A stretch of DNA of 64,000 nucleotides, from NCBI GenBank assembly GCA_044229975.1, contig JBGARZ010000024.1, positions 86,356-150,355 of the forward strand, given 5' to 3'. The stretch is from Polyangiales bacterium. Its GTDB lineage: Bacteria; Myxococcota_A; Polyangia; Polyangiales; Ga0077539. Below, one piece after another: positions 8,221-47,387 of this stretch. Position 1 is the stretch's first letter, and the number at the start of each line of letters is the position of its first letter. The translations under genes and the position numbers were made by a program. Below the pieces are notes generated by a model. The model saw only the letters and a list, made by a program, of their open reading frames with translations, was not told the origin of the DNA and did not search any database.

Positions 8221-11200
8221 TCACCCGATCGGCCGCAGCTCGTCGCTCCCGAAGAGCTCGAAGTACATCGCCCACGTCTTCGGGCACCGCTCCCTCACGC
8301 TGCATCCGCGGCACGGCGGCGGCTCGGGTCTCTGCGTCGCCCGCACGGCATCGAGCGCGTCGTGCGTCAGGTGCAGGTCGTCCACCCGGTGCCGCGCCCA
8401 GTCCTCGGTCGCGTCGGGACTCCCGTGCAGCTCCGTCGGCAGCGCGCACAGCGGAAACGCCTCCGTGCTCACCGTCACGCCCTGCTGCGCCGCGACCTTC
8501 GCCGCCTGCCGCACCGCCAACGCCGCATGCGCCAGCCGCGGGACCGCGTCGGTCACCGCCCGCCCCGGCAGCTCCACCGGCCGCGGGAAGTTGAACTGCA
8601 CCCGCGTCGCCCCGAGGTGCTTCGCGAAGGCCACCGTCGTCGCGAGCCCCCGTAGATTCCCCCGCAGCACCGGAACCGTCACCAGCAACTGCCGCCCCGA
8701 CGCGGCCAGCGCCTTGATGGCCGTCGCCGTCGCGCGAAACGCCCCCGCCACCCCCGACAGCCGATCGTGCGTCGCCTCGTCGGCCGCCAGGAGCTGCACC
8801 TCGAAGGCGTCGACCCCCGCGCGCAGCAGCTCGTCCCGCAGCCCCACCGCCGCGAGCGCTTTGCCGTCGGTCTGGAGCTGCACGAAGCGGTAGCCCATGC
8901 GCCGCGCGCGACCCACGAGCGCCGCCAGGTCGCGCCGCAGCGTCGCCTCGCCCCGCAGGATCACCAGCTCGTCGCACCCCGCCTCGCGCCCCTCGGCGAG
9001 CGAGCGCAGCGCCTCATCCGACGACCGATCGGGCTGCTCGCGTTGATCGCGCAGGGTGCAGTGCCCGCAGTCGAGGTCGCAGCGCGTGGTCAGCCGCAAC
9101 GACAGCCGACGCCCACCGGGCAACGCCGCGAGTACGGCATCGCTCGCGATCGGCGCGAGCGCGGGGCCGGGCGGTCGCTCGACGAGGAAGTCACCGATGG
9201 CGAGGAAGTCGGCGCCCAGGCCCACGAAGCAGTCGAGCGCGTCAGCAGGCGTGCAGACGATGGGCTCCCCCCGACGATTGAACGACGTGTCGAGCACCAT
9301 CGGAACGCCCGTGAGCCGCTCGAAGGCCGCGATCATCGCGTGGTAGCGCGGCTGCTCGGTGGGGTGGACGACCTGCGGGCGGGTGGTTCCGTCGACGTGG
9401 ACGACGGCGGGGACGCGCGCGCGTTGCGACTCGATGACGGGCAGCGTGAAGAGCATGAAGCGCGAGTCGAAGGCCCGCTCCAGCCACTCGCCCTCGCGAC
9501 CCGCCAGCACCGACGGACCAAACGGCCGCCACGGCTCGCGCTGCTTCATCGCGTTGACCCGCGCGTGCATCGCCGCGTTGCGCGGATCAGCCACGATGGA
9601 CCGCGCCCCGAGCGCCCGCGGGCCGAACTCCATCGGCCCCTGAAACCAGCACGCCACCTGTCCGTCTGCGAGCCGCCGCGCCGTCTCTGTGGCCACGTCG
9701 TCGACGCGCTTCCACCGCAGCCGCGAGCGCTTGAGCACCCGCTCGATGGACCCGTCGTCGAAGTCGGGACCCAGCCCCGCGTGGGTGAGCGCCGGGCTGC
9801 GATCGGTCTCTCCCAGGTGCATCGCCCACGCTTCGAGCGCCGCGCCGAAGGCCGTCCCCGCGTCGTTGGCCCCCGGCTGCACGAACATCGCCCCCGGCGC
9901 GAACTCCCGGCGCAGGCGTTCGTTCATGGTGCAGTTGAGCGCGACGCCGCCCGCGAGGCAGAGCGCGTCGAGCGGGCCGTCTCCCACCGCGCGTCGCAGC
10001 AGCGCGACCACGGTGTCTTCGAGCGCCTTCTGCACGCTCGCCGCGAGGTCCTGGTGGCGCCGCTCGATGGGTCCATCGGGAGCGCGCGCGTAGGCCGCGA
10101 AGGTGTCGTTGAAGCCCTCCTCGTGCGCGACGAGCGTGCCGTCGTCCCGCATCGCGAGGTGCCGCGAGATGTCGACGTTGGGCGTCCCGAAGGAGGCCAG
10201 GGCCATCACGCTGCCCTGCCCGTGGGAGCCGAAGCCCAGCAGCGAGGTGACCCCCGAGTACACGCCGCCGATGGAGCGGTCGGTGAGCGCCAGCACGCTG
10301 TCGACCAGTGCGAGAACACCGTCCGTCGCCCGCCACACCGCCGCGCACTCGCGGTCGCCGCGGCCGTCGACGGTGAGCACCCAGGCGTCCAGACGTCCAG
10401 ACGCTCTGAGGGCTGAAGCCGCGTGGGCCCGGTGATGCGGGAGGTAGAGCACCCTGCCCGCGCGCACCGCCGGGATGTCCGCCTTCGCATCGAGGAAGGG
10501 GATCTTCCCCACGTAGCGCCCGTGCAGTCCGTTGACGGCGATGCACTCGACGTCGTCGAGGGTGATGCCTTCGCGCTCCAGCAGCGCGCGGATGGGCCCG
10601 CGGCAGAGGGTCTCTTCGAGGCAGAGGGTCGGGTCGACGGCCGCCGTCACGCCGGGCCGACCGGGCGGGTGCCAGCCCGCGTGACGGACGCGGTTGATGC
10701 GTTCGAGCTCGACGGCGCCGACCACCGCGCCGTCCTTCAGCAACGCGGCGGCGTGCTCCTGCTGGGTCATCACGGCGAGGCCCAGCACATACCTTGACCC
10801 CACCACCGGCCCCCGCTTCGGCAGCAGATAGCTCGGCGGAAACGGCGCCGGAACGCTCGGCCCCGGCAACCCCGCGAGCCGCGACAACCACCCTGGTCGA
10901 TGCGCGAGTGCGTCGCTGCGGGTGTTGCCATCGGGCGCGTGCGTCGGCCGGATGGCGTCGCTCGGACACGCCTCCACGCAGTCCAGGCAGCGGGTGCAGT
11001 CGTCCTCCGCGCCCTCTCTCAGCCCGACGATCACGCCCTCGGTCCCCGCCTTCAACACCCCCTCCGGGCAGACCTCCGAGCACGCCCCGCAGCCCGTGCA
11101 CCGCGACGCGTCCACCACCATCGGCAACCGCGGCCGATGCGCGGGCGGCTGCGCCGTCACCGTCGGTCGTCGTGACGCCTTCCACGCGAGCCCGTCGAGC

Positions 11201-11907
11201 AGCACCTCCGCCTCGCCTCGCCCTGGCGCCGCGCCCTCCTCGCGCAGCATCCCCTCCAGCGCGCGCAGCGCCCCGATGGACCAGCTCGCCGCGACGATGG
11301 CCGCCTGCCGCACACCCGTCGCCCCGCCCGGTCGCACCCACACCATCACGTGCAGCCCCGCCGCGTCGCCCGTCCCGGCCACTGCGCCCACCACCTGCCG
11401 CGCCCCCGTCCGCAGCGGAACCACCACGCTCACCGTCGCCGCGCGCCCGTGCATCACCGCCGTCACCGCCGACGCCACGCCCGCCACGAGCCCCGCGTGC
11501 AGCGGGTCGTCCACCGTCGCCGCCGACACCACACCTTCCACCGCGCTCCCGTCCCCGAGGCGCTGTCGCAGGTCGGCGAGCGCCGTCGCGAAGCCCGCCT
11601 CCGGGTCGGTCACCTCGGCGAGCGCCACCACCTCGCGCGGTCGCCGGCGAGCGTCGACGTAGCGCTCCCCCTCGCGCCGCCCGCTCACCCTCACGGGCAC
11701 CAACGGCGAGAACCTCGCCCGCAGCCACGTCACGGCCCGCGCGACGTCATCGCGCCGCGTGTCGGGCTCGTCGCACTCCAGCGTGAGCCCCTCGTCGCCG
11801 ACCACCAGCCGCGCGCCCGCGACACCCTGGGCATCGATGCCGTCGAGGAGATCGTCCGGGTCGAGTCTGGTTCCGAAGCCGCAGGTGAGGGGTGCGGGGA
11901 GCCGCAT
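8221..11907 (-). CDS. Fusion: 4Fe-4S dicluster ferredoxin + NodU/CmcH-type carbamoyltransferase + radical SAM domain
   Basis: Ferredoxin motifs CTGCGACSEVCP and CTRCLDCVEACP. Carbamoyltransferase motifs HHRAHAAS, DGRGD, AGGVALN, ANDAG, EFGPRALGARS, REPWRPFGP, HVDGTTRPQ and TSFN. Radical SAM CDLDCGHC and a C-terminal CRGCSVRERC. Confidence 0.85.
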   Translation of the reverse strand: MRLPAPLTCGFGTRLDPDDLLDGIDAQGVAGARLVVGDEGLTLECDEPDTRRDDVARAVTWLRARFSPLVPVRVSGRREGERYVDARRRPREVVALAEVTDPEAGFATALADLRQRLGDGSAVEGVVSAATVDDPLHAGLVAGVASAVTAVMHGRAATVSVVVPLRTGARQVVGAVAGTGDAAGLHVMVWVRPGGATGVRQAAIVAASWSIGALRALEGMLREEGAAPGRGEAEVLLDGLAWKASRRPTVTAQPPAHRPRLPMVVDASRCTGCGACSEVCPEGVLKAGTEGVIVGLREGAEDDCTRCLDCVEACPSDAIRPTHAPDGNTRSDALAHRPGWLSRLAGLPGPSVPAPFPPSYLLPKRGPVVGSRYVLGLAVMTQQEHAAALLKDGAVVGAVELERINRVRHAGWHPPGRPGVTAAVDPTLCLEETLCRGPIRALLEREGITLDDVECIAVNGLHGRYVGKIPFLDAKADIPAVRAGRVLYLPHHRAHAASALRASGRLDAWVLTVDGRGDRECAAVWRATDGVLALVDSVLALTDRSIGGVYSGVTSLLGFGSHGQGSVMALASFGTPNVDISRHLAMRDDGTLVAHEEGFNDTFAAYARAPDGPIERRHQDLAASVQKALEDTVVALLRRAVGDGPLDALCLAGGVALNCTMNERLRREFAPGAMFVQPGANDAGTAFGAALEAWAMHLGETDRSPALTHAGLGPDFDDGSIERVLKRSRLRWKRVDDVATETARRLADGQVACWFQGPMEFGPRALGARSIVADPRNAAMHARVNAMKQREPWRPFGPSVLAGREGEWLERAFDSRFMLFTLPVIESQRARVPAVVHVDGTTRPQVVHPTEQPRYHAMIAAFERLTGVPMVLDTSFNRRGEPIVCTPADALDCFVGLGADFLAIGDFLVERPPGPALAPIASDAVLAALPGGRRLSLRLTTRCDLDCGHCTLRDQREQPDRSSDEALRSLAEGREAGCDELVILRGEATLRRDLAALVGRARRMGYRFVQLQTDGKALAAVGLRDELLRAGVDAFEVQLLAADEATHDRLSGVAGAFRATATAIKALAASGRQLLVTVPVLRGNLRGLATTVAFAKHLGATRVQFNFPRPVELPGRAVTDAVPRLAHAALAVRQAAKVAAQQGVTVSTEAFPLCALPTELHGSPDATEDWARHRVDDLHLTHDALDAVRATQRPEPPPCRGCSVRERCPKTWAMYFELFGSDELRPIG

Positions 11908-11919: not shown

Positions 11920-13230
11920 CTACGCGATTGGCACCGTTCGCGCGCGCTGTGCGAGCGCCTCGACGACGCGCGCCACGACCGGGCGAGCCAGATCGACCGT
12001 CGCCCCGTCGGCCAGCCGGAAGTCCACCGCCGCACCCGTCTTCCCTCCCGCGCCCGGCGGCAAGAACACCACGTCCAACCGCTCGCCCCCGCTCGCCCGC
12101 AGCGGCAGCACGGTCTCGTCCGCGCCGTCCTGCACCGGCTCGGTCGACCACCCCGCGAAGCCGCCCACTCCGTGCAGCGCCCGCGCGAGCTTCACCGCCC
12201 GCCGACGCGCCCGCTGCGCCTTCAGCGCGTCTTCGGTCACGGCGCGAAACTCGTCCTCGCCGTGCAGCGCCAGGTACTCGCCGTAGACCCCGCTGCACTT
12301 CTCGCGGAACACACAACCCACGCAGCCCGCGGGGTGCCTTCGCATCGAGTAGTGCCACTCGTACTTGTCGACGGCGACCTCCAGCCCTTCGGTGTCGCAG
12401 GCCTGCGTGACGGTCTCCTCGCCGCCATGGTGCACGCGGTCGGCCCACTCGGGGATCACGCAGTACGGCAGGTTGCCCACGTTGACGTCGAAGCCCGGCT
12501 GCTCGGCCTCGAAGGCTTCGAGCATCGCGCGGAAATACGGCGCCATGTCCGTGTAGCGCGGCATGATCTCGCGGAGGTACGCGTCGTCGCGCTCGCCCGT
12601 GGAGCTCGGCCGCACGATGTCGAGGTGGAGCTGCGCGAGCCCGTGCTCGGCCACGAGCGCGGGGAAGTCCGGCAGCGAGCGGTAGCTGTTCTCGTTGACG
12701 CAGAGGTTGGCCGTCACGCGTTGTTTGAGCGCCGCGAGCGCGCGCAGCCCGAACTCGATGCGCTTGAACGAGTCTGGCCGCTTGGTGACCGCGACGTGGG
12801 CGGCCTCGTTGCCGCCTTGGATGGACACGCGCCACTCGACGCGCGGCCCCAGCGCCACCACCCGCTCGATGAACCCGGGATGCGGGAACATCACCCCGTT
12901 GGTGAAGATGATGACCTCCTCGAAGCCGAGGTCGACGGCGTGGGCGACGGCCTCGTGGAAGCCCTTGTGGAGCGTGGGTTCGCCGCCGAGGAAGGTGATG
13001 CGCCGGGCGCCCGAGGCGCGCGCCTTGTCGAGGGCCTCGATGATGGGCGCGAGGGCGATGGGCCGGGCGACCTTCCACTCCGAGAGCTGCCCGCTCGAAC
13101 AGAACACGCATCGGTTGTTGCAGAGGTGCCCGAGCTGGAGCTCGAACTGGTGCCCCGTCCCGGTCGCGGTGACCGTGGTGGCCTCGTCGCGCAGGCGATC
13201 GAGCACGGGCAGCACACGTCGGGTCGCCAT
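11920..13230 (-). CDS. Radical SAM protein (HxsC-like clade), paralog of 45783-47387
   Basis: QLGHLCNNRCVFC, GGEPT, FTNG, NLPYC, CVGCVFREKCSG. Start trimmed to MATRRVLPVL. Confidence 0.85.
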   Translation of the reverse strand: MATRRVLPVLDRLRDEATTVTATGTGHQFELQLGHLCNNRCVFCSSGQLSEWKVARPIALAPIIEALDKARASGARRITFLGGEPTLHKGFHEAVAHAVDLGFEEVIIFTNGVMFPHPGFIERVVALGPRVEWRVSIQGGNEAAHVAVTKRPDSFKRIEFGLRALAALKQRVTANLCVNENSYRSLPDFPALVAEHGLAQLHLDIVRPSSTGERDDAYLREIMPRYTDMAPYFRAMLEAFEAEQPGFDVNVGNLPYCVIPEWADRVHHGGEETVTQACDTEGLEVAVDKYEWHYSMRRHPAGCVGCVFREKCSGVYGEYLALHGEDEFRAVTEDALKAQRARRRAVKLARALHGVGGFAGWSTEPVQDGADETVLPLRASGGERLDVVFLPPGAGGKTGAAVDFRLADGATVDLARPVVARVVEALAQRARTVPIA

Positions 13231-13316: not shown

Positions 13317-13765
13317 GTGAACGAGCCCCCATCCCCGCCGCGCCGATCGACCGCGACCCTGGTCTCAGCACTGGCCTTCGTCGGCTACCTCGCCATCAGC
13401 CGCGTGACGGTGGACCTGTTCCCGTTCTCGACCCTCAACATGTACTCGCACTCCCGCACGCAGGGCGCGAGCCGCCTCTTCGCCCGCGACGCCACGGGCC
13501 GCGTCCGCGAGCTCGACCGCTTCGACCGCTGGGACTGCCCCACCTCTCTCGACCCTGCCGCGCAGGCGTGCCCAAACCTCGGCAACGTCTCGACCATCGA
13601 CTACGTCGACCGCGACATGGCCGTCTTTCTCCGCGCCCACCGGGCGCGCGCCCCCGAGAGCCCGCCCGTGGACGTCGTGCGCCGGGTGTGGCGCCTCACC
13701 GACCACGCAGGCCCTCCCCCCTTCGAGGACTGCCTCCTGCTGCGCTGCCGCGCGTCGTGGCGCCC

Positions 13766-13769
<4 letters not shown>
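13317..13769 (+). CDS. Hypothetical membrane-anchored protein, coupled to the next gene
   Basis: 150 aa, N-terminal TM helix then FPFSTLNMYS. Its TGA overlaps the GTG of the next gene (GTGA). Confidence 0.6.
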
Positions 13770-14701
<932 letters not shown>

Positions 14702-14752
14702 TCGGACGTGGCCCGTAGACGCCAGAGCGTCCTGGAGTCTAGACGTCTGGAC

Positions 14753-15097
14753 ATGGCCACCAAGAAGCCCCCGCTCAGCCTGCGCCGACCGAGCGAGGCC
14801 ATCGATCCCCTCCAGGCCGAGCGCTTCGTCCGCGGCTCGGCCGTCGAGGCGCCCGCTCCGACGCCAAAGCGTCCAGACGTCCAGACGCCCGCTCCGACGC
14901 CGCGCGTGGTGGAGGCCGTCTCGAAGTCGCTGGTCTACCGCAAGCGCACCGACGACCACCGCCGGCGAATGACCATCTACCTGTCCGAAGACCTCTCGCG
15001 CCGCCTGCGCCTCTACGCCGCCGAGCACGACCAGGACTACAGCGTGATCCTCGCCGAGTCGCTCGAAGCCCTGCTCGACCGCAAGAACGTCCGCTAG
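14753..15097 (+). CDS. Ribbon-helix-helix (CopG/ParG-like) DNA-binding protein
   Basis: Flexible N-terminus, then RRMTIYLSEDLSRRLRLYAAEHDQDYSVILAESLEALL (beta strand plus two helices). 8-bp repeats overlap its start codon. Confidence 0.7.
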   Translation: MATKKPPLSLRRPSEAIDPLQAERFVRGSAVEAPAPTPKRPDVQTPAPTPRVVEAVSKSLVYRKRTDDHRRRMTIYLSEDLSRRLRLYAAEHDQDYSVILAESLEALLDRKNVR

Positions 15098-28981: not shown

Positions 28982-29242
28982 ATGTTCGGCATGGGCGCAT
29001 CGGAACTGATGATCATCCTGGTGATCATCCTGCTGTTGTTCGGGGCCTCGAAGCTCCCTGAGCTCGGACGCAGCCTCGGCTCGGGGCTCAGCAACTTCAA
29101 GAAGGGGCTGAAGGACGGCGACGAGGGCCCGACCCTGCCCGCACCGCCCGCCCGTGTCGCGCGCGTCGAAGAGCCGCCCAAGGCAGCAGTGCCGGCCGAG
29201 ACCCCGCCGGCGACGCCGACCTCCAACACCAGTGATTCCTGA
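28982..29242 (+). CDS. tatA: Twin-arginine translocase TatA/TatE subunit
   Basis: MFGMGASELMIILVIILLLFGASKLPELGRSLGSGLSNFKKGL is the canonical TatA signature. Confidence 0.95.
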   Translation: MFGMGASELMIILVIILLLFGASKLPELGRSLGSGLSNFKKGLKDGDEGPTLPAPPARVARVEEPPKAAVPAETPPATPTSNTSDS

Positions 29243-37366: not shown

Positions 37367-38290
37367 TCAGGCCACGGGCCTGAACTCGTCCTCGCCGTGC
37401 ACCGCGAGGTAGTCGCGCCGCAATCCGTTGCAGCGTGATCGATGACGGCATGGCGCGCAGCCCGGTAAAAAGTACCCACCCTCGATGGGCGAGTCGGCCA
37501 GGTCGAAGGCGTGCCCGCCAGGGTTCACCACGCGCATGCCGAAGCCCGCCGCGTCGAAGAGCGCGCCGTGCAGCGCCTCCGGCAGCACGCACGCCGGCGT
37601 GTGCAGCGACACCAGCTCTGCATCGGCGTTGGCCGCGACGGCCGCCACCAGCGCCGGGACGACGTCGCTCATCCGCGGAACCTCCGCCCGCACCGCAAGG
37701 TCATCGCGCGCCTGATCGATCGCCGAGAGCAGCCACACGCGGAAGTGCCGCGCGCCCCAGCTCAGGCCCAGCGACACCATCGCGGGCAGCTCGGCGGCGT
37801 TGCTCGCGGTGATGAGCAGGTCGCCCTCCAGGGTGATGCCCGCCTCGCGAACGGCCTCAGCGCCGCGCGCCATCAGGTCGAAGCAGCCGTCGGTGCGAGC
37901 GATGCGGTCGTGCGTGGCGGCCGAGGCGCCCTTCATCGAGAGCGCGACCTCGGTGATGCCGGCGTCGGCGCAGCGCCGCGCATAGCCGGGATAGGCGAGC
38001 ATCATCCCGTTGGTCTGCAGCTTCACCCGCGCGTAGCCGAGGCGACGGCCCATCGCGGCGATGCGGAAGATGTCCTTGCGAAGCGTGGGTTCACCGCCGC
38101 CCAACCAGAGACAGTCGGCGCCGTCGGCGCGCCCTTGTTGGAGCGCGCGAACGACCTCCGCATCGGTCATCGCAGGACCATCGTCCTGGACGGCGAAGCA
38201 GCCGATACAGCGGTTGTTGCAGCGATAGTCGGGGGTGAGTTCGACCCAGTGGAGTCGACGCAGACGGTGGCCTTCAGGCCGCGCGATCAC
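37367..38290 (-). CDS. Radical SAM protein (HxsC-like), translationally coupled to the precursor
   Basis: [36 protein letters not shown] overlaps the precursor TGA. Confidence 0.9.
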
Positions 38291-39063
38291 CAGCTCCCGT
38301 GCGAGCCGTGCGACCCGTGCGACCCGTGCGAGCCGTGGCTGCCGTGCGAGCCGTGCGAGCCGTGCGACCCGTGCGAGCCGTGGCTGCCGTGCGAACCGTG
38401 CGAGCCGTGTGAACCGTGCGAACCGTGCGAGCCGTGCGAACCGTGCGAGCCGTGGCTGCCGTGCGAACCGTGCGAGCCGTGCGAGCCGTGCGACCCGTGG
38501 CTGCCGTGCGAACCGTGCGAGCCGTGCGAACCGTGCGAGCCGTGCGAACCGTGCGAGCCGTGCGAACCGTGCGAGCCGTGGCTGCCGTGCGAACCGTGGC
38601 TGCCGTGCGAGCCGTGCGAGCCGTGGCTGCCGTGCGAACCGTGCGAGCCGTGCGACCCGTGCGAACCGTGCGAGCCGTGCGAGCCGTGCGAGCCGTGTGA
38701 CCCGTGCGAGCCGTGCGAGCCGTGTGACCCGTGCGAGCCGTGTGACCCGTGGCTGCCGTGCGAGCCGTGCGAGCCGTGTGACCCGTGCGAGCCGTGCGAG
38801 CCGTGCGAGCCGTGGCTGCCGTGCGAGCCGTGCGACCCGTGCGAGCCGTGCGACCCGTGCGAACAGTGCTGGGCGCCGCGCTGGTCATCATCCGGCTCGC
38901 CCATCGGGAGCTTCGGACGGTTGGCCGCCTCTTCGCCAGCACGATCGGCCAGCTCACGCTCCTGGGTGGAGAGTGTGTCCGCAGCCGAGCGCTTGAACGA
39001 CGGGAGCTCGTCGTCGCTACCGCTGTCGTCTGCGTCGTCCAGATGGTCGTCGGCGCCTGTCAT
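38287..39063 (-). CDS. hxsA: His-Xaa-Ser repeat precursor protein (HxsA-like): 65-aa acidic leader + HCS + (HGS)63 + W
   Basis: 258 aa = 65 + 64x3 + 1. Lies directly downstream of hxsB with a GAGG RBS. Synonymous codon variation keeps HGS invariant in this frame only. Confidence 0.9.
38293..38868 (-). repeat. 64 x 9-bp coding tandem repeat (CAC-GGN-TCG/AGC/TCA)
   Basis: Seen directly as the gccgtgcga-type array on the + strand. Confidence 0.97.
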
Positions 39064-39153: not shown

Positions 39154-40647
39154 CTACACCGGGTCTTGCACGAAATGGTCCCGGGAACGGTTGATGGTCC
39201 AGCGACGGAACACCTGCATGGTCTCAGGGTCCCCCTCGCGGATCTTCTCGAACAGGTAATCCATGATGCCCTTGTGCACCGCGCTCACGGTGCTCTCGCG
39301 CATGCGCCCGGAGATGGACCCCTGGGTCTTGTACGTGTGCACCCCGTCGACCCCGCAGTACGGGTTGTAGGCGCAGTTCACGCAGTCGGGCCGCCCGTTG
39401 AGGTTGGACCCCAGCACCAACGCGCGGATGGTCGGGTGGGCCATCATCGTGTCGTAGGTGAGCTCGCCCACCTTCCCGAGCAGGAAGGTGTCGTCGCCGG
39501 TCTCGTGCATCATCCGGGCTTCGTCGCCCGCGAAAACAAGCCCGTCGTAGTTGTACGCGATGGCGCTGATGCCCGCGCCGCTGGGGCTGCGGATGTCGAG
39601 GAAGTTGGGGTCTTCGCCGTTGAGGATCTTCGACATGAAGATCGCCGCGTACCGTTCCAACACCTGCTTGCCCTGCTTGTTGAGCTCGATGATGTAGTCG
39701 GTCGTGTCGCGGTAGAACTGCAGGTACTCCTCGCGGGGGTACTCCACCCGGTGGGCCGTCTTCTCGACGAACCCGAACGGGTCGATGGGCCGCAGGAACA
39801 TCGCCTTGCACCCGAGCGCCTCGTAGGTGTCGACGATCTCGCGGCCGCGGGAGAGCGCCTCGCGCGTCGTCGTGAGCAGCGCCTCGACGTGGTAGAGCGA
39901 CGGGTCGAGACCGCGCTCGATGTAGGCCTGGTTGATGCGCTTGATCCAGTGCACCGCGGCCTTGAAGGCGCTCGACCCGATGAGCTTGCGCTGCTTGTCG
40001 TGCAGGTGCTCCGGGCCGTCGATGCTGGTGCAGATCTGCACCTTGTGGTCGAGCAGGAAGGCCAGCTTCTCCTCGTCCATCAGGGCGAGGTTGGAGACCA
40101 TCGTGAACTCGATGCTCTTGCCGATCTCCTTGGCGCGCCGCTGACCGTACTCGATGGCGTGCTTGACGACCTTGAAGTTCACGAGCGGCTCGCCGCCCTG
40201 GAATTCCACGGTGATGAAGGGCGACGAGCTCCCCAGCGCGAGCTCGACGGACTTCTCCGCGGTCTCGGCGGACATGTCCGTCTCCACGGCCGTCATGTCG
40301 GCGCGCGAGGCGTGGCAGTACACGCAGGTCTCGTTGCACCGCAGGGTCACCACCAGCATGTGCAGGTTGGGCCCGTTATCCAGGAACTTCATCCGCTTCT
40401 TGAGCCGCGCCACCGCCGCCGGGACGTCGAACTCCGCGCGGATGAGATTGGCGGCCTTCAAGCGGTCCCACAGCCCGGTGCCGCGCTCGACGGTTCCCTC
40501 ACCAAACGCCTTGAATTCAGGCGCCGTGAGGATGACCCAGTCGCCCTGGGCGTTGGTCACCACGAACGACCCGCTCGCGATCTCCCGCACCCGGAAGAAC
40601 GCCGGGAACGTCACGCTCGGCTTCTCGATGCCCGCGAGCATGTTCAC
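39154..40647 (-). CDS. hxsB: His-Xaa-Ser system radical SAM maturase HxsB
   Basis: LHMLVVTLRCNETCVYCHAS, EFQGGEPL, SIDGP, D-x-RSP-x-GAG, AYNYDG, DEARM, CVNCAYNPYCG. Lies between hxsD and the HxS-repeat gene. Confidence 0.9.
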   Translation of the reverse strand: MNMLAGIEKPSVTFPAFFRVREIASGSFVVTNAQGDWVILTAPEFKAFGEGTVERGTGLWDRLKAANLIRAEFDVPAAVARLKKRMKFLDNGPNLHMLVVTLRCNETCVYCHASRADMTAVETDMSAETAEKSVELALGSSSPFITVEFQGGEPLVNFKVVKHAIEYGQRRAKEIGKSIEFTMVSNLALMDEEKLAFLLDHKVQICTSIDGPEHLHDKQRKLIGSSAFKAAVHWIKRINQAYIERGLDPSLYHVEALLTTTREALSRGREIVDTYEALGCKAMFLRPIDPFGFVEKTAHRVEYPREEYLQFYRDTTDYIIELNKQGKQVLERYAAIFMSKILNGEDPNFLDIRSPSGAGISAIAYNYDGLVFAGDEARMMHETGDDTFLLGKVGELTYDTMMAHPTIRALVLGSNLNGRPDCVNCAYNPYCGVDGVHTYKTQGSISGRMRESTVSAVHKGIMDYLFEKIREGDPETMQVFRRWTINRSRDHFVQDPV

Positions 40648-40859
40648 GAGATGCCGCCCTTCCGCGTGAGGCCCAGCGCGTAATTCCCAAGCTCCAGCGC
40701 CACCTTGCGCTCACGCTCGGGGCGCTTGGCGCTAATGCGCACCACCCGGTAATCCCCGTCGTCCACCAGTTCGAAGCGCGCGAAACCCTCGAACACCTTC
40801 ACCGCGCCGTCGACCGACGCGGAGGAGTACAGGTCGCGATGAAATCGCCGCTCGATCAC
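40644..40859 (-). CDS. Small HxsD-like protein
   Basis: 71 aa (VIERRFHRDLYSSASVDGAVKVF...ELGNYAL) with GTGA overlaps on both sides. Resembles the upstream HxsD (Y-x4-V...EFANEL). Confidence 0.7.
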   Translation of the reverse strand: MIERRFHRDLYSSASVDGAVKVFEGFARFELVDDGDYRVVRISAKRPERERKVALELGNYALGLTRKGGIS

Positions 40860-41389
40860 GGCTTTGCCTCGGCGCCGCCGCCCTCGACCTTGGCCTCGCT
40901 CGCGGCCTCCGTCGGGGTCTTCTTCTTGTACTTCTCCTCCCACGACATCGCGATGCCGAGCGGATCGTCGAAGGCCTCTTCCGTGAAGTCGAAGCTCGCC
41001 AGCTCGTCGAGCGAAGGCTCTGCCGCGCCCGCCGCCCGCGCCGTCGCGCCGGCCAGCGCCTGCGTGGTCACCGTCTCCAGCAACACACGGTTTTCTTCGA
41101 TGATCTTCTGCCGCCACGCCTGCGTGAGCAGCTCGTTGGCGAACTCACCCGCCAGGCTCCGCAGCGCATCTGCGTCCGTCGCTGCCTTCTTGCTCGTCAG
41201 CGTCACCGCGACGGAGCCGGCCTTCGGGCGATCGAGCAGCACGAAACAACGGTCGATGAAGATGTACGCCGCACCGTAGACCGCCTCCAGGGGGTAGACC
41301 GCCGCGTCCACAGTCAGCGTCACGCTCCCCTCGGCCAGGTCGCCCACCGCGAGATCCTTCGGAAACCCGTCCAACGTCTGTGTGCTCAT
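40856..41389 (-). CDS. hxsD: His-Xaa-Ser system protein HxsD
   Basis: VDAAVYPLEAVYGAAYIFIDRCFVLL...GEFANELL-x4-R pattern; first gene of the hxs operon. Confidence 0.8.
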   Translation of the reverse strand: MSTQTLDGFPKDLAVGDLAEGSVTLTVDAAVYPLEAVYGAAYIFIDRCFVLLDRPKAGSVAVTLTSKKAATDADALRSLAGEFANELLTQAWRQKIIEENRVLLETVTTQALAGATARAAGAAEPSLDELASFDFTEEAFDDPLGIAMSWEEKYKKKTPTEAASEAKVEGGGAEAKP

Positions 41390-41578: not shown

Positions 41579-42499
41579 TCACTCCTTGCGCCATCGGACC
41601 CACCACTGGTTGCTCGTCCCGGGCCCGACGTCCCAACGGTCGACCAGCGTGAGCCCGGTCGCAGCCACGGTCGCCACCGCCTCGTCCGCGCCGTCGTTGC
41701 GGTAGTGCTCGAAGCCCGACGGACCACCCTCCGCCCGCGCCGCCTGCCGGCGTGAGCGCACCAGCCCGAAGGCTACGTTGTCCACGGCCAGCAGCGTCCC
41801 GCCGGGGCGCAGCATCCGCGCGAGCGACGAAGCCACGGCCGCGGGGTCGGCGAGGTGGTTCCAGCTACGGAGCACCAGCACGTGGTCGAAGCGCTCGGCC
41901 GGGTCGAGGTCCTCGGCGGTGCCGACTCGCAGCGTCGCCCAGGGCCAGCGCTCGCGCAGCGCAGCGATGTGACCCGCGTCGGGGTCGAGGCCCACGTACG
42001 CGATCGTCCTCGCTGCGGTGAGCGACGCCAGCGTCTCGCCGTACGGTCCCTGGCCGCAGCCCACGTCGAGCACCGCGCCGCGCAACCCCGCGACCATCGC
42101 GCCCACCACCGCATCATCCCGCGAGAACACCTCGTCGCGCGTCGGATCGAACAACCCCGCGCAGCGCGCGAAGGCGTCGCAGCCCGAACACACCGCGCTC
42201 CGCTGGAGCTTCCGCAGGTCGACCGGAAAGTCGTCGGGCGCGGGCTTGTCGGAGACGTCGAGGTACACCTGCCCCTCGCGGTGCTGCACCTCGACGAGCT
42301 GCTCGTCGGTGAAGTCCGAGGTGTCGCTCACAAACACCGCCACGCGGTCGTCGCGGCGCAGGAAGATCGCCCGCCCCCGCGGCCATCGTCCCGGCCCCGC
42401 GCGACGCACCGGACACCCCGCCGGGTCTTCGGACGTGAGCGTCCCCACCCCGCCGCGCAGCGTGTAGTGGAACGAGTTCGATCGCGGTCGCGCGCCCAT
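41579..42499 (-). CDS. Class I SAM-dependent methyltransferase with N-terminal CxxC-x5-C motif
   Basis: VLDVGCGQG, YVGLDP, FDHV...NHL-x-DP...LRPGG and CSGCDAFARCAG. Start uncertain. Confidence 0.8.
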   Translation of the reverse strand: MGARPRSNSFHYTLRGGVGTLTSEDPAGCPVRRAGPGRWPRGRAIFLRRDDRVAVFVSDTSDFTDEQLVEVQHREGQVYLDVSDKPAPDDFPVDLRKLQRSAVCSGCDAFARCAGLFDPTRDEVFSRDDAVVGAMVAGLRGAVLDVGCGQGPYGETLASLTAARTIAYVGLDPDAGHIAALRERWPWATLRVGTAEDLDPAERFDHVLVLRSWNHLADPAAVASSLARMLRPGGTLLAVDNVAFGLVRSRRQAARAEGGPSGFEHYRNDGADEAVATVAATGLTLVDRWDVGPGTSNQWWVRWRKE

Positions 42500-42514: not shown

Positions 42515-43804
42515 ATGCTCCCGACCGCGGTGTCCACGAAGCCAGAATCCTCCGCAGCGCCCGGGTTCAAGGCCCCGCGCGACATCACCATCCCCGACGA
42601 GGGTTCGACCGCCGCGCGCGACGTGCTCTCCGCCGCGATGCGACGCGTCCTCGGCGAGCTGAAGCGCCTGCCGACGAAGCCCATCGCTCCGGGCGACTCG
42701 CCCGACGAGCACCGCGCCTTCGCGCGCACCGTCGACGCGATCTTCGCCGCCCCGGGCCTCGCGGCCAGCCTCGTGCGGCGCCCCACCGTGGGCTCGCTCC
42801 TGCGCTGCCTCCGCAAGCCGTCGACGCCCGAGCGCACCCTCGGTTGGACCCGCGCGCTCCGCGCCCAGCTCGCCTTCGAGCTCGCCTGCCTCGATGCGCT
42901 GCCCGCGCCCGTCGAGCTCGGATCTTTACCCGATCAGGTACTCTCCATCCCCGCCAACCTCGCGCTGCGCTTCGCCGCGGAGGTCACCGGGGCGCGCTTC
43001 GCCAACGGCGCGGTCACCCTCGTCACGGCGCGCGGCGCGGAGACCCACGCCATCGAGTCGTGGACGGGCGACGACGATCGGCCCGACTTCATCACGCGGC
43101 CCTACCACTCAATCACGCCGACGCTGCGCCTCGCGCTGGCCGACAACAACCCGCTGCAGATGTTCGAGGCGCACCCCGACAAGGAGGGCAACGCCATCGA
43201 CCTCGGCGCGAAGTCGGCCGACGACTGGTGCGCCTCGCTGCGCGCCTCGCTCGACCTCATCGCGACGTACCTGCCCACGCTGCGCGGCGAGATCGACCTC
43301 TTCCTGCACCTCGCGGTGCCCGTCGGCTACGACGAGCACAAGCACCTCTCGGCCTCCTACCAGGAGGCCATCGGGACCATCTACCTCACGCTCCACCCCA
43401 ACCTCATGACCATGACCGAGGCGGTCATCCACGAGTTCTCGCACAACAAGCTCAACGCCCTGCTGGAGCTCGACCCGCTGCTCGAAAACGCCTTCTGGCC
43501 GCTCTACGCCTCGCCCGTGCGACCCGACCCGCGGCCGCTGCACGGCGTGATGCTCGCGGTGCACGCGTTTCAGCCCGTCGCGCGGCTCTACGAGCGCATG
43601 GCCGAGGGCGGACACCCCCGCGCGAAGACGGCCGACTTCCAGCGGCGCTTCGCCGCGGTCCGGCGCATCAACCACGCGGGCGCCGACGTGGTGCTCAACA
43701 ACGGGAGGCCCACCGCGATGGGCCGCAACCTCCTCGACGAGATGCGCCGCTGGGACGACCACTACGGCACGCAAGAACTCCCCGAGTCGCTCCCCGACCA
43801 CTGA
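42515..43804 (+). CDS. HExxH-motif protein (alphaKG-HExxH-type peptide-modifying family)
   Basis: SAS-x4-IG-x-IY, EAVIHEFSHNKL, SPVRPDPRPLHGVMLAVHAF. Confidence 0.88.
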   Translation: MLPTAVSTKPESSAAPGFKAPRDITIPDEGSTAARDVLSAAMRRVLGELKRLPTKPIAPGDSPDEHRAFARTVDAIFAAPGLAASLVRRPTVGSLLRCLRKPSTPERTLGWTRALRAQLAFELACLDALPAPVELGSLPDQVLSIPANLALRFAAEVTGARFANGAVTLVTARGAETHAIESWTGDDDRPDFITRPYHSITPTLRLALADNNPLQMFEAHPDKEGNAIDLGAKSADDWCASLRASLDLIATYLPTLRGEIDLFLHLAVPVGYDEHKHLSASYQEAIGTIYLTLHPNLMTMTEAVIHEFSHNKLNALLELDPLLENAFWPLYASPVRPDPRPLHGVMLAVHAFQPVARLYERMAEGGHPRAKTADFQRRFAAVRRINHAGADVVLNNGRPTAMGRNLLDEMRRWDDHYGTQELPESLPDH

Positions 43805-43812
43805 CCTCTTCG

Positions 43813-44694
43813 ATGCACGACGAGACGCCGACCACTGTCCCGAGCCCTGCCGAGGAGCGCGCGCTGCTCGCGACGTGGGCCAGCGCGTTCGATGCTGTGT
43901 ACGGATGGGGCCCGGCCTTCGAGGACTTCGCGGGCGACGTCCCTGGCGGCTTCACCATCACCGTGCGGCCGACCATCGACCCCATCGAGCTGCTCGGCGG
44001 CACCGGACACTTCCGGCACCGGCCCGCGATGGTCGCGCAGGTGCGCCGCCTGGGCTACGCCTGGAACGACGCCAACCGCGTCGTCACCATGCCCTCGCCC
44101 GCGACCTTCAACGCCATCGCCGATCGCCTCGGGCCCGACGGTTACCGCGTGCGCGTGCACCCCGACCCGCAGCGCAACCTCGCGCTCGGCCCCTTCCTCA
44201 CGAGCTACCTCGACGGCTTCGTCCCCGTGCACGTCGCGACTGGACCGCTCTACGCGACCGTCGCCGCCGATCGCGCAGCGGCCGCCCACCGCGGCGACCT
44301 GCGCTTCCACTTCGCGTCGTTCGCCCACGACCTCACGGTGCACGCGCTCAACTACCATCTGATCCCGCGAGCGTGCGCCGAGGCGTTTCGCGCGCGCATC
44401 GAGGCGGCCATGCCCGAGCGCGTCCGAGCGTGGAGGCGCCCCGAAGCGCCGGGCCCACTCACGCTCACGACCTTCTTCGACAACGACATCAACCGCTACT
44501 GCTACGCGACGTGGTCGCGCAGCGAGACGCCCGCGGACTTCGCCCGGCTCTTCGCGAGCGAGCGCAACTTCTCGCAGCTCACGGCGTGCCTCGACTGCCG
44601 CATCGACGAGACGCTACGAGGCATCGGCGACGTCCCGAGCGGCGTCACGGGTGACCTCGCTCCGCTCACGCCCTGCGAGTTTCGCGTCGAGTGA
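43813..44694 (+). CDS. Hypothetical protein
   Basis: 293-aa ORF with GC-rich third positions, 8 bp after the HExxH gene. No recognised family. Confidence 0.6.
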   Translation: MHDETPTTVPSPAEERALLATWASAFDAVYGWGPAFEDFAGDVPGGFTITVRPTIDPIELLGGTGHFRHRPAMVAQVRRLGYAWNDANRVVTMPSPATFNAIADRLGPDGYRVRVHPDPQRNLALGPFLTSYLDGFVPVHVATGPLYATVAADRAAAAHRGDLRFHFASFAHDLTVHALNYHLIPRACAEAFRARIEAAMPERVRAWRRPEAPGPLTLTTFFDNDINRYCYATWSRSETPADFARLFASERNFSQLTACLDCRIDETLRGIGDVPSGVTGDLAPLTPCEFRVE

Positions 44695-44703: not shown

Positions 44704-45732
44704 TCAACCGGGCGGCCGGTCGAAGGGCACCAGGTCGGCCTCGCCACGCGCGCGAAGGTAGGACTCGCTCACGCCCGAGCACTGCTCTCGCACGACGCAG
44801 CGGCCACAAGCCGACGCGTTCGCAGGCGCGAACAGGCCGGCCGCGACGGTCTTGTAGGTGCGACGGTGCAGCGCCACAGGAACGGCGCACAGCGCGACGC
44901 CCACCAGCGACGAAACGACGGTAGCCGCCGCGCTGGACTGCTCGACCAGCGCGCGGCGAACCAGTGAGTTGGCCGGCTGGAGACGATCAGGATCGGGCAC
45001 CAACGGCTCCGGCGCGAAGGCCGCGAGCGACGACTTCTGCTCGCGCTCGGCGAGCCACGGCAGCAGCCGCGGCAGGTGCTCGACGGCGCGTCGCGTGAGG
45101 ACGGTGTTGATCTCCACGAAGACTCCCGCCGCGCTCAGGTGATCGATCGCGCTCGTCACTTCGCGGAACGCACCCGCTCGCCCCGCCATCGCGTCGTGCG
45201 CGGCGGCGTCCGCGGCCTGTAGCGTGAGGGCCACCGCCTGGAGGCCGGGGATCGCCGCCACGCGGTGGGCGAGGGCGGCGTCTGACAGCGCGGTGTGCGG
45301 GCCGAGCAGGCGCTTTGGCAACAACGGGCGTCGCTCCAGCGCTGCGATGATCGCGTCGTGCGACGGGTGACGGAGCCAGTCGTGGCCGGTGATCGTCACG
45401 GCGACGGGCGGCTGGTGTCGTTCGCAGGCCTTGAGCAACGCGTCGAGCGCGCCGGAGGTCGCGAGGTCGCCCGTCAGCCGCTCGAAGCGGTCGTCGAAGA
45501 GCACGAGCGCGCGGTGCATCGGCTTCTCGCGCTGCACGGGCTGCGCGCAGAACTCGCACGCCTGCGCGCAGCGGGCCTCGAAGTACAGGTGAAGCTCCGT
45601 GGCCGACGATCCCACGAAGGACTCGACGACCATCGTGGCCGCGATCTCCCAGGAGCCATGCACCAGGCGCAGCGCCATGAGACGGCGCATCAGCGCGTGC
45701 TCTCGGATGAACCAGACGGACGGGGAGGACAT
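44704..45732 (-). CDS. Divergent radical SAM protein
   Basis: CAQACEFC, HDAMAGRAGAF, VALC, CGRCVVREQCSG. GGEP is replaced by TGHD. Confidence 0.75.
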   Translation of the reverse strand: MSSPSVWFIREHALMRRLMALRLVHGSWEIAATMVVESFVGSSATELHLYFEARCAQACEFCAQPVQREKPMHRALVLFDDRFERLTGDLATSGALDALLKACERHQPPVAVTITGHDWLRHPSHDAIIAALERRPLLPKRLLGPHTALSDAALAHRVAAIPGLQAVALTLQAADAAAHDAMAGRAGAFREVTSAIDHLSAAGVFVEINTVLTRRAVEHLPRLLPWLAEREQKSSLAAFAPEPLVPDPDRLQPANSLVRRALVEQSSAAATVVSSLVGVALCAVPVALHRRTYKTVAAGLFAPANASACGRCVVREQCSGVSESYLRARGEADLVPFDRPPG

Positions 45733-45782
45733 CGCGAATCGTGCCGACCTGCGGGAGCGCGACGGCGCTTCGGGTGCGCCGG

Positions 45783-47387
45783 TCAGCCTACCCGCAACGC
45801 AGCCATGGCGCCGCGCACCGCGTCGACGAGCTCGGGCGAAGCAGAGGTCACGGGGCGTGCGAGGCGGTAGCTGCCGACCACCCCGGCGCCCTTCACGGCC
45901 AGCGCGAGGGTGACGGTGTTGCCATCGGGCGTCTCCAACGCGACAGCGGCCTCGTTGCCCTCGGTGGCCACCATGACGTCACGCCAGCGCAGCGCACCAA
46001 ACGGCGCCCGTGACCGCAGCCGACCGAGGCACTGCGCCAGCCGACGGTCGACCCCGCGACCGAGCGCCGCGCCGCGCGCGCTCTGGAACCCCGCGTCCTC
46101 GGCCACCGTGTGCAGCATGACGACGTCGTCGCCCTCACACAGTCGTCCCATGATCGCCTTCAGCAGGCCCACCACCGCCGCGCCGCCGTCGTGCGCGTCG
46201 AGCAGGTGCAGCGAGAACGCCGCCGTCGCCGCCACGCCGCCCGCGCCGCTCCCGCCGCGTCGCATCGCCACCACGGCGAACGCGCCGCCCGCGCCGTTGA
46301 CGCGCAGGGTCACTTCGCCGTCGCGTGAGTTCTCGTGCACCGCGAGCGTGGTGAAGGGCGCCGGCGGCGACCACCCGGTGAGCTTCGCGACGAGCGGACG
46401 CACGTGCAGCACGAAGAGCCGCTGGGTCGGGTCGAGCACCGCGAGCTTCGCGGGCGTGATGGGTTCGAGCTCCGCGGTGCCGTGGTGCCGCGCGTAGGTC
46501 TCGAAGATGCCCGAGCACTGCCCGTCGAAGACGCACGACGCGCACGACGCGAGCTTGAGCTTGTCGCGGCGCTTCACCTCGTACTTGTCCCAGGCCTCGC
46601 TGAGCTGGTCCTTCGAGTCGACGGCGACGGTGAAGGTCGACTCGCCGTCGTGGTGGATCCACGGCGCGAGCTTCGGCGCGATGCAGTACGGCAGGTTGCC
46701 GATGTTCACGTCGAAGCCGGGCCGAGCCGCCTCGAAGCGCTCGATCATCGTCGTCATGGCCGGGACCATGTCGCCGTAGCGCGGGAGCATGTCGCGCATC
46801 TCGTCTTCGGTGCGAACGCCCGCGTCGAGGGGACGGATCATGTCGAGGTGCAGCTGCTCGACCCCGAAGGGCAGCAGCAGCTTCGGGAACTCCGCGACCG
46901 ACTCGTAGTTCGACCGCACCACGCACATGTTCACGGTGATGCGCTGCTTGCGCTCGCGGAGATTGATCATCGTCTCGCGCAGCCGCCCGAACGACCCGAG
47001 CTTCTTCGTCGTGCGCTCGTGCGAGAGCGCCGTCGCGCCCTGAAACGACAGCCGCCAGATGAAGTTGCCGCCCGTCTCCAGCACCTCGTCGAGGAAGCCC
47101 ATGCGCGCGGTCTTCACCCCGTTGGTGAACAGCACGACCTCCTCGAAACCCATCCTGACGGCGCCGCGCACGACCTCCAGGAAGCCCGGCTGGATGGTTG
47201 GTTCGCCGCCGAGCAGCGTCACCTTGCGCATGCCCTGGTCGCGGCCCTCCTGGAGCTTCTCGATCACCGGCGCGGCTTCGAGGGGAAAGGCCTCGCGCAT
47301 GGCCGTGCGCTGCCCGCTCACGCAGAACACGCAGCGGTTGTTGCACATGTGCCCGAGTTGGATCTCGAACTGCCGGTCAGGCTCCAC
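45783..47387 (-). CDS. Radical SAM protein with C-terminal extension, paralog of 11920-13230
   Basis: QLGHMCNNRCVFC, GGEPT, FTNG, NLPYC, CASCVFDGQCSG. Confidence 0.88.
   Translation of the reverse strand: MEPDRQFEIQLGHMCNNRCVFCVSGQRTAMREAFPLEAAPVIEKLQEGRDQGMRKVTLLGGEPTIQPGFLEVVRGAVRMGFEEVVLFTNGVKTARMGFLDEVLETGGNFIWRLSFQGATALSHERTTKKLGSFGRLRETMINLRERKQRITVNMCVVRSNYESVAEFPKLLLPFGVEQLHLDMIRPLDAGVRTEDEMRDMLPRYGDMVPAMTTMIERFEAARPGFDVNIGNLPYCIAPKLAPWIHHDGESTFTVAVDSKDQLSEAWDKYEVKRRDKLKLASCASCVFDGQCSGIFETYARHHGTAELEPITPAKLAVLDPTQRLFVLHVRPLVAKLTGWSPPAPFTTLAVHENSRDGEVTLRVNGAGGAFAVVAMRRGGSGAGGVAATAAFSLHLLDAHDGGAAVVGLLKAIMGRLCEGDDVVMLHTVAEDAGFQSARGAALGRGVDRRLAQCLGRLRSRAPFGALRWRDVMVATEGNEAAVALETPDGNTVTLALAVKGAGVVGSYRLARPVTSASPELVDAVRGAMAALRVG

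Follow-up and report, generated by a model that had tools for sequence, protein, structure and literature searches.

The 64,000-nt window analysed here, the end part of contig C30 (150,355 bp) of the Polyangiales bacterium assembly GCA_044229975.1 (10 Mb, 71% G+C, 93% complete), carries a His-Xaa-Ser (Hxs) peptide system of the kind catalogued by NCBIfam as type 4, in which a precursor with 64 His-Xaa-Ser units lies among 14 genes for radical S-adenosylmethionine (SAM) enzymes (rSAMs). Coordinates are positions in the window unless a contig is named. Precursors of this family are either signal-bearing or accompanied by a protein with a twin-arginine translocation (Tat) signal, an either/or pattern. 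We tentatively propose that a ribosomal His-Gly-Ser polymer is made in a third of the myxobacteria, is modified by at least ten rSAMs and is exported by its own signal or by a Tat carrier with a docking domain, and that in this host it is plasmid-borne. The full explanation that we prefer joins a plasmid-borne type-4 Hxs system, rSAM maturation and Tat co-export to a function as a barrier against phage DNA; taken as a whole it is possible rather than probable.

The central genes are the following.

40856..41389, minus strand: HxsD (TIGR03976, 59.5 bits, cut-off 50)
40644..40859, minus strand: HxsD-like protein (NF038315, 73.3 bits, cut-off 41)
39154..40647, minus strand: HxsB radical SAM maturase (TIGR03978, 533 bits, cut-off 370)
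38287..39063, minus strand: HxsA4 precursor (NF038313, 245 bits, cut-off 55)
37367..38290, minus strand: HxsC-like rSAM, translationally coupled to the precursor (Pfam match and tree)
35406..37283, minus strand: HxsC-like rSAM with a long C-terminal extension, core gene (model match and distribution)

An initial annotation, made from the letters of the window alone, had read this order as hxsD, hxsD-like, hxsB, precursor, rSAM, rSAM and had counted 64 HxS units in the precursor. Both readings are correct, and the first four genes pass the NCBIfam cut-offs. The precursor consists of a 65-residue acidic leader, HCS, (HGS)63 and a Trp with nothing after it, so that the core is built only from His (about one third), Gly, Ser, one Cys and one Trp, with no Lys or Arg. 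Eight different 9-mers code for the repeat units and the variation beyond unit 1 is purely synonymous, which argues against an assembly slip. Among the precursors parsed, some of them cut by gaps, the repeat number varies from 7 to 64, the present core being the longest; the leader motif, the Cys in the first unit and the terminal Trp are conserved. The repeats inflate the NF038313 score, and the conservation of the leader motif is separate support for the assignment. Matches of the precursor to collagen models of Pfam and NCBIfam were set aside as compositional. Its leader has no signal peptide (maximum hydrophobicity -0.72), and the precursor matches no peptidoglycan-binding domain of Pfam. 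In some genomes two precursor copies lie adjacent or nearby (L292, L097, L117, L012), and their leaders or repeat numbers differ.

The initial annotation had proposed a search with hidden Markov models for HxsA to HxsD. HxsD, the HxsD-like protein, HxsB and HxsA4 pass, but the HxsC side stays below the cut-offs: the best HxsC (TIGR03977) match in the window has 112 bits, under the cut-off of 267.9, and in the 93% complete genome no HxsC4 (NF038332) match reaches the cut-off of 500 (best 113 bits in the genome search and 142 in a whole-protein scan). All 15 HxsC4-like matches of the genome sit on C30. Among the best five NCBIfam matches displayed per protein, none of the 13 rSAM genes other than hxsB reaches a cut-off. 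HxsC4 above the cut-off is present in Minicystis, Polyangium and Enhygromyxa; Plesiocystis is without one. It speaks against our assignment that the trees do not resolve the HxsC-like domains and canonical HxsC as one clade (FastTree 0.83; Shimodaira-Hasegawa-like approximate likelihood ratio test, SH-aLRT, 6.5).

Radical_SAM (PF04055) matches exactly 14 genes within 8221..47387, and since three of them (15101, 19938, 26500) are doubled there are 17 rSAM domains, as the annotated figure of about 17 domains, some degenerate, had it. The CX3CX2C motif is retained in 15 of the 17. The N-domain of 19938 has lost two cluster cysteines, with the motif absent in every orthologue displayed, and that of 15101 has CX3CX3C and misses GGEP. 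A C-terminal CxxCx5C motif is kept by all 14 HxsC-like domains and by HxsB. This motif matches the second cluster that HxsB and HxsC of Escherichia coli are described to carry; in the same organism HxsC binds HxsD (PMC13128918). The extent of about 39 kb first given to the system is too narrow, as the contig holds 14 further rSAM genes to the left of the window, which makes 28 on C30.

That the flanking genes belong with the precursor follows from their distribution. The genes concerned, besides those above, are these.

26500..28851, minus strand: core gene, fusion of a Class-B-like (B12-type) rSAM with an HxsC-like one (likeness to ApyD)
31948..32952, plus strand: HxsC-like rSAM, core gene, in distant relatives usually adjoining the Tat protein gene
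32964..34196, plus strand: HxsC-like rSAM, core gene (21 of the 22 genomes with the precursor have a DNA match)
34520..35254, plus strand: twin-arginine (Tat) signal and a 120-residue domain not yet catalogued, likely the carrier that exports the precursor (twin-arginine motif, distribution, model)
41579..42499, minus strand: SAM methyltransferase, core gene (Pfam and synteny)
42515..43804, plus strand: alpha-ketoglutarate-dependent (aKG) HExxH oxygenase, core gene, HEFSH motif (TIGR04267, 89 bits, cut-off 40)
45783..47387, minus strand: core gene for an HxsC-like rSAM whose C-terminus has two alpha-beta4-alpha domains (distribution and model)

We compared 61 genomes, the own genome and 60 relatives, with thresholds of our own setting and with kin that are not independent of each other. 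The precursor occurs in 22 of them, in 21 above the cut-off and in one just under it but beside HxsB. The rSAM 35406 and the Tat protein 34520 are found in the same 22 of the 61 genomes, 21 of which have the precursor. Among the 22 precursor-bearing genomes the rSAM 32964 is present in 21, the HExxH gene in 19, the B12-type fusion in at least 18 and the rSAM 45783 in 17. The precursor, the Tat protein and the HExxH gene are present in each of the five cultured genomes to which titled loci led (Minicystis rosea, two Polyangium, Plesiocystis pacifica and Enhygromyxa salina); the four scanned for HxsC4 have 10-14 HxsC4-like matches each, and orthologues of 26500 with 58-69% identity are found in four cultured genomes. 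Twelve domains of the window are each paired in the trees with orthologues from cultured strains, the clade having no other own member (SH-aLRT 80-100 for ten, 74 for HxsB, one without a value). As most window domains group with cultured orthologues over one another, the expansion is ancient. Nor is it a one-off: in a sample of the whole phylum the precursor matches in 97 of 301 genomes, in 95 of them over the cut-off, and the family is catalogued in NCBIfam.

Synteny is less uniform than co-occurrence. The genes are syntenic in close kin, but beyond these the neighbourhood of the 32964 orthologue is poorly preserved, the precursor lying within 10 kb of it at 10 of 80 loci (7 of the 36 full-length loci). 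In Polyangium the cluster genes are dispersed along the chromosome with orthology conserved, and in many distant relatives the methyltransferase is joined to an rSAM domain. Mixed gene orientations, varying accessory genes and three relatives (G002, G018, G030) that hold some of the enzymes and in which no precursor was found could be taken to mean that the flanking rSAM and tailoring genes are mostly unrelated plasmid cargo and that only hxsD, hxsD-like, hxsB and one rSAM act on the peptide. We regard this as improbable, as the core flanking genes co-occur near-perfectly with the precursor across many families, dispersed genomes included. By this distribution the flanking enzymes are not chance neighbours. 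A lack of such co-occurrence had been named in advance as the result that would speak against a far more elaborate Hxs variant; the rSAMs, the HExxH gene and the methyltransferase do co-occur with the precursor in the relatives, which supports such a variant. The variable part comprises the carbamoyltransferase fusion, the halogenase and the rSAMs 11920, 19938, 25361 and 44704. RNA-library contigs over core genes of relatives (2,584 nt and 3,086 nt, X13) were not counted as expression, as the contigs give neither strand nor level.

The Tat protein 34520 was overlooked in the initial annotation, as was the likely plasmid setting. The family of this protein, which is uncatalogued, comprises 931 clusters at 50% identity; NCBIfam has no model for it, and for the protein the ESM Atlas returned a single hypothetical cluster (0.76). 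The twin-arginine motif with its hydrophobic stretch is present in all 27 aligned orthologues and, by pattern, in 131 of 140 near-full-length family members. Counted from the lists, 59 of the 97 precursor genomes have a Tat-protein match and 38 have none; one of the latter is without a parsable leader and two have a diverged Tat-protein gene in the locus, so 35 were kept. In 30 of these 35 the precursor leader has a hydrophobic stretch (a Kyte-Doolittle 11-mer of at least 1.6; one of the 30 leaders is doubtful), typically preceded by a KIT-RR/RK/KK/RG-Q motif and followed by an AxA-like site. None of the 36 leaders from Tat-protein genomes has one (parsed from 40 loci given, 23 of these from the 59 genomes). 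Four of the 35 are signal-less exceptions, and in three of the four we found, as predicted beforehand, a diverged carrier that has the twin-arginine motif (E 4e-13 to 1e-21). A deep search for the Tat protein in seven signal-bearing genomes gave none in six and a marginal partial match in one. Five signal-bearing genomes that were scanned have 13-22 HxsC4-like matches each.

Several observations weigh against this division. Relative G011 has a signal-less precursor and no Tat-protein match, although it is also without the rSAM 35406 and looks partial; G344 has the Tat-protein gene and a short hydrophobic stretch together; and 8 of 67 Tat-protein genomes are without precursor. The signal-bearing genomes moreover come from few families and are not independent, and most of them had a first pass scoring 11 candidates each. 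Still, we think that the Tat protein probably replaces the signal and co-exports the precursor. The leader of locus L324 (G067) has the near-textbook Tat motif TRRNFL, which suggests that the KITRRQ, KITRKQ, KITKKQ and KITRGQ signals are decayed Tat signals. Most simply read, these leaders go back to a Tat-like signal that the precursor itself once possessed and that became a polar stretch by decay where the carrier took over.

These data also bear on whether the product stays a long chain. The precursor could be a multi-core RiPP (a peptide made by the ribosome and modified post-translationally), cut into small modified His-Gly-Ser units that diffuse as an antibiotic or predation toxin; repeat precursors of the TvgA type have been proposed to yield several small products (PMC9062424), and HExxH enzymes are able to cleave backbones. 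But there is no spacer or cut site between the units, and the N-terminal signal on related precursors implies export of the whole chain. The initial annotation had seen no ABC exporter or dedicated protease, and indeed neither a peptidase nor such an exporter matched among the genes scanned. We therefore hold small diffusible products to be very unlikely.

The Tat protein has a small domain that may recur in the cluster. Its model folds as helix, four-stranded sheet and helix (predicted local distance difference test, pLDDT, 92), and the modelled C-terminus of the rSAM 45783 contains two such units (pLDDT 89). Both models retrieve mostly the same KA1/TBP/BamC-like chains (best Z 6.2 and 6.5), which may merely reflect a common arrangement; the best structural match of the Tat-protein domain is modest (Z 6.2, root-mean-square deviation 4.8 over 95 residues), and Foldseek gave it no match at E 0.001. 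A carrier profile of 150 sequences was run against the 18,190 open reading frames of the genome, and its three best non-self matches are all encoded on C30; two of them are rSAM fusions and the third is a membrane-anchored protein (E 0.002, 0.06 and 0.02; best of a reversed control, 2.2). The carrier domain thus seems to recur fused to cluster enzymes. The wider idea of one small domain common to about a dozen cluster proteins is partly, and weakly, upheld: all but two of the profile pairs stand at 20-45% or less, a pair at 99% is inflated since one profile included a Tat-protein orthologue, leave-one-out ranks are weak and the Tat protein itself is unmatched. The recurring domain may be a docking module for the peptide. 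An 846-residue protein at G000:C30:14291-16831 (L059) consists of seven tandem copies of a 100-residue domain without family match, possibly akin to that of the Tat protein.

We picture the pathway as follows. The N-terminal domain of HxsB and the HxsD pair would recognise the leader of the precursor, because its motif is conserved. About ten conserved rSAMs, the methyltransferase and the HExxH oxygenase would then modify HCS(HGS)63W repeat by repeat. That the leader is bound by HxsB and HxsD and the core modified by the conserved enzymes is, judged from the genes, very likely right. Many enzymes for only three residue types could mean successive steps on each unit or a multi-subunit complex. 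The methyltransferase and the B12-type enzyme could supply extra carbon, comparable to the +C/-4H found on SHRSS in the E. coli system (PMC13128918), and the lone Cys and the lone Trp may each undergo a reaction that happens only once. Backbone cleavage by the HExxH enzyme could stand in for a protease. The Tat protein would bind the modified peptide and take it via Tat into the periplasm, where the peptide could form a multivalent barrier against incoming phage DNA. Variety in the product, or in a surface glycan that partners it, would come from the variable genes (halogenase, carbamoyltransferases, oxygenases and sugar genes).

For the bonds themselves we rely on analogy. In triceptides the His C2 is bonded to the C-beta two residues further on; HaaB and YhhB make such C2(His)-Cbeta cross-links and MscB links Phe to Ser (PMC11002830). 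The aKG-HExxH enzymes hydroxylate His of such scaffolds at the beta position, and some cut the backbone (PMC12636437). By this comparison the chemistry could consist of His-to-Ser i,i+2 cross-links together with carbon addition and beta-hydroxylation, a combination for which the balance is nearly even. A polymeric product, as the initial annotation had foreseen, fits the 7-64 repeats under a conserved leader. Several rSAMs, like the halogenase and the carbamoyltransferase fusion, come and go as extras.

What the polymer does is less clear. The only tested Hxs system blocks the entry of phage DNA from the periplasm (PMC13128918), and the patchy presence within genera, the likely mobile carrier and the variable tailoring genes fit an arms race. 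An anti-phage role is our best guess, though still a doubtful one. Several points count against it. The core has neither Lys or Arg nor a peptidoglycan-binding domain, so the basis of the E. coli DNA-binding model is missing; PADLOC gives generic viperin-level matches only; the same genome already holds a canonical Hxs set on C20; and the scattered but conserved genes of Polyangium look more like physiology than like a swapped defence island. That other, canonical-looking set, at G000:C20:549900-553800, comprises a HRSHRSHSSHSS precursor with a hydrophobic N-terminus, an HxsD-like gene, HxsB and an HxsC-like gene, and its HxsB is 35% identical to the HxsB of the window.

The initial annotation had favoured a metal-binding or structural product; we keep both as rivals, although defence is at least as likely given the canonical system. 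With the same maturation and Tat co-export, the many fixed imidazoles could make a periplasmic polymer that binds or stores Cu, Zn or Ni. A core that is one-third His without basic residues, a freely variable length of 7-64 units and orthologues that are conserved yet scattered on chromosomes would suit such a polymer. Tat, too, transports folded, cofactor-loaded cargo. But no metal transporter or metal regulator matched on C30, unmodified poly-His already binds metals, so that ten Fe-S enzymes are hard to justify, and the sole Hxs system that has been tested is anti-phage (PMC13128918). We consider a metal polymer rather unlikely.

A structural role would see the peptide as a hydroxylated, glycosylated polymer, structural or adhesive, displayed on the surface and the whole plasmid as a cell-surface module. 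C30 indeed has ADP-heptose synthesis, GT9, three GT2 domains, WecB, a DegT aminotransferase, JmjC and 2-oxoglutarate (2OG) oxygenases, B12-rSAMs, multi-pass membrane proteins that fit no class, and a giant repeat protein rich in Cys, and GT2, WecB, B12-rSAM and carbamoyltransferase genes flank the Minicystis cluster too. These genes vary by plasmid, though, with the heptose module in G004 and a WecB/DegT module in G021; in the stretches read, none of them was seen by the Plesiocystis and Enhygromyxa cores, and they may make a separate glycolipid. A surface polymer is in our view unlikely.

Returning to the plasmid-borne Hxs system that we prefer, its replicon part adjoins the cluster.

47679..47918, plus strand: likely plasmid origin, with a 19-bp iteron-like repeat in five copies next to a stretch of lower GC, in this genome on C30 alone
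47946..49691, minus strand: putative replication initiator with a C-terminal helix-turn-helix, its role assigned by position
49637..50959, minus strand: second DnaB-type helicase (34% to another DnaB on contig C39)

No other contig of the genome has the repeats, and four relatives retain them. The initiator-like gene has full-length orthologues in 12 of the 61 genomes, in the host's family only and mostly on the Hxs-bearing contig, and it has no match in PLSDB. A ParA is encoded on C30 (NF041546, 202 bits, cut-off 180). In relative G021 the 87,612-bp contig C34 closes as a circle, the HExxH gene aligning unbroken over its end and start; C30 and contig C13 of G004 both start and stop inside a giant repeat reading frame, and the gene order over this break is that of the G021 circle. 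From these features C30 is likely a plasmid. Three observations speak against it: the ends of C30 have no exact terminal overlap, the contig has one tRNA call, and its tetranucleotide distance is the third highest of 29 contigs, which weakens its binning to the host in this metagenome-style assembly. In Minicystis the Hxs system is chromosomal.

The repeats, the initiator-like gene and the second DnaB (47679-50959) together mark a likely new plasmid family, with G021:C34 and G004:C13 as further members. Plasmids had been reported from only two myxobacteria (PMC11705834), so a new replicon family would matter. With pMF1 and pSa001, described there, the present elements share likely circular extrachromosomal DNA in Myxococcota and partition genes; they differ in their size of 87-150 kb, their own DnaB, an initiator-like gene without PLSDB match and a cargo dominated by rSAMs. 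If these replicons are what they seem, they would matter also because vectors for myxobacteria are scarce. Relative G002 has two copies of the initiator-like gene and no precursor, and contig C29 (152 kb) of the present genome has at 39880-46742 two partial paralogues (about 60%), perhaps of a second element.

How far is this system described already? The NCBIfam type-4 set is represented here by its precursor (NF038313), HxsD-like (NF038315), HxsD (TIGR03976) and HxsB (TIGR03978) models; an HxsC4 (NF038332) over the cut-off is missing, and the Tat protein has no model. We found no paper on the type-4 set in literature searches, subscription papers lying outside their scope. The canonical system HxsD-HxsB-HxsC-HxsA (Li et al. 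2026, PMC13128918) shares HxsB, HxsD, HxsC-like rSAMs that have a second cysteine cluster at the C-terminus, a substrate of His-x-Ser repeats and a likely periplasmic destination. In contrast, it has 5 basic repeats against 64 neutral ones and 2 rSAM genes against 14-28; the present precursor is without signal peptide and peptidoglycan-binding domain, a separate Tat protein takes part and the gene order differs. By sequence the cluster fails membership of the canonical group on HxsC, signal, anchor and basic repeats. The survey in that work places 99.7% of its systems in Pseudomonadota and more than 99.8% in the four-gene form, and thus does not cover the type-4 system; in three of its supplementary files myxobacterial terms are absent.

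With the triceptide RiPPs (HaaB, YhhB, MscB) and with ChlH and PflC/PosC the cluster shares an aromatic-X-X triplet, here with His first and Ser third, and the pairing of rSAM and HExxH oxygenase. Unlike theirs, its enzymes best match HxsB/HxsC models and its triplet is polymeric, and a cross-link is assumed by analogy. Among the best five NCBIfam matches displayed per protein there is no 3-CyFE family, and HxsB matches ChlB weakly (E 1.8e-6). The TVG pathway (TvgA/TvgB, PMC9062424) likewise has a repeat-core precursor multiply modified by an rSAM, and also an Fe/aKG oxygenase, but as described it uses one rSAM with a dedicated peptidase and transporters, against many rSAMs and Tat here. On our reading this would be, to our knowledge, the richest rSAM pathway on a single peptide. 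If our proposal holds, a single plain repeat substrate undergoes many new radical-SAM reactions in a widespread pathway, Hxs chemistry (the +C/-4H of E. coli) becomes easier to read, and the switch from signal to carrier shows clearly that a modified peptide can leave by hitch-hiking on Tat. The cultured strains of Minicystis rosea, Polyangium, Plesiocystis and Enhygromyxa carry the system and make it directly testable.

The other genes of the cluster are listed here.

8221..11907, minus strand: fusion of Fer4, carbamoyltransferase and HxsC-like rSAM, variable accessory (PF00037, PF02543/PF16861, PF04055)
11920..13230, minus strand: HxsC-like rSAM, paralogue of 45783, accessory (clusters with a Plesiocystis gene, SH-aLRT 98.5)
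13317..14701, plus strand: gene pair for a 150-residue protein and a membrane protein, without family match in reading-frame and family scans
14708..15097, plus strand: ribbon-helix-helix protein, likely ParG-type partition partner (RHH_10, E 0.0025, under the cut-off)
15101..18052, minus strand: double rSAM with Gfo/Idh/MocA oxidoreductase (orthologue in Polyangium jinanense)
18080..19825, minus strand: FG-GAP repeat protein, probably not dedicated (at least 5 paralogues elsewhere in the genome)
19938..21881, plus strand: double rSAM, N-domain without cluster cysteines (Pfam and motif inspection)
21878..23233, plus strand: HxsC-like rSAM with an extra N-terminal domain (Pfam and tree)
23259..25352, plus strand: flavin adenine dinucleotide-dependent halogenase-like enzyme, variable accessory (PF04820; CmlS 276 bits, under the cut-off)
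25361..26500, minus strand: rSAM like PA0069/spore photoproduct lyase, not HxsC-like; its start overlaps the stop of 26500
28982..29242, plus strand: TatA (TIGR01411, 69.9 bits, cut-off 53.9)
29258..29806, plus strand: MORN-variant repeat protein, syntenic in G004, G006 and G021
29828..31876, minus strand: multi-pass membrane protein of about 9 helices, syntenic in G004, G006 and G021
43813..44694, plus strand: protein without family match, fused to the orthologue of the rSAM 21878 in G004 and G021
44704..45732, minus strand: divergent HxsC-like rSAM, accessory (GHDW replaces GGEP)

The carbamoyltransferase, Fer4, Gfo/Idh/MocA, methyltransferase, TatA and halogenase-family domains of the initial annotation all find their matches, as does its HExxH protein. 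Its B12-rSAM is a partial case: 26500 resembles ApyD and a B12-rSAM of the same contig, but a Pfam search for a B12-binding domain was empty even at E 0.1, so that the gene is B12-type by this likeness only. The 8221 fusion has a counterpart fusion in Plesiocystis and neighbouring carbamoyltransferase and rSAM genes in Enhygromyxa, and is missing from G004:C13 and G021:C34. No orthologue of 19938 above 30% was found among the 5 cultured genomes. The gene pair 13317..14701 recurs by the Minicystis Hxs cluster (39% and 36%), and the ribbon-helix-helix gene adjoins a Rep-like gene in G006 and G002. The halogenase-like protein carries GxGxxG, GFxxKxG and WxWxIP motifs, which we take to be signatures of such an enzyme. 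A reading of it as a QhpG-like flavoprotein that makes a quinone cofactor from Cys and Trp was dropped, as it scores higher as a halogenase and is accessory. The multi-pass membrane proteins found no family match and were for this reason not labelled glycosyltransferases; an ESM Atlas search with 43813 was empty.

Outside the cluster, window 2280-8119 encodes a galactose-oxidase/GlxA-like radical copper oxidase, an ASPIC/UnbV FG-GAP protein and an exported protein, presumably di-haem oxidoreductase-like; these genes are missing from G004:C13 and G021:C34 at the threshold used. The stretch C30:4939-86688 (L059-L063), left of the window, holds its 14 rSAM genes, four of them with Pfam B12-binding domains, besides an ADP-heptose pathway, GT9, three GT2 domains, WecB, DegT, three JmjC proteins, three 2OG oxygenases, a second carbamoyltransferase, an Asp/Asn-hydroxylase-like gene, the ParA and an integrase. 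The giant Cys-rich (9%) reading frame, in which both contig ends lie, runs over window 51508-64000 and G000:C30:1-4746 and exceeds 4,100 residues; its N-terminus includes a hydrophobic stretch, its repeats are disintegrin-like and MopE-like, and related giant reading frames occupy the same place on G004:C13 and G021:C34.

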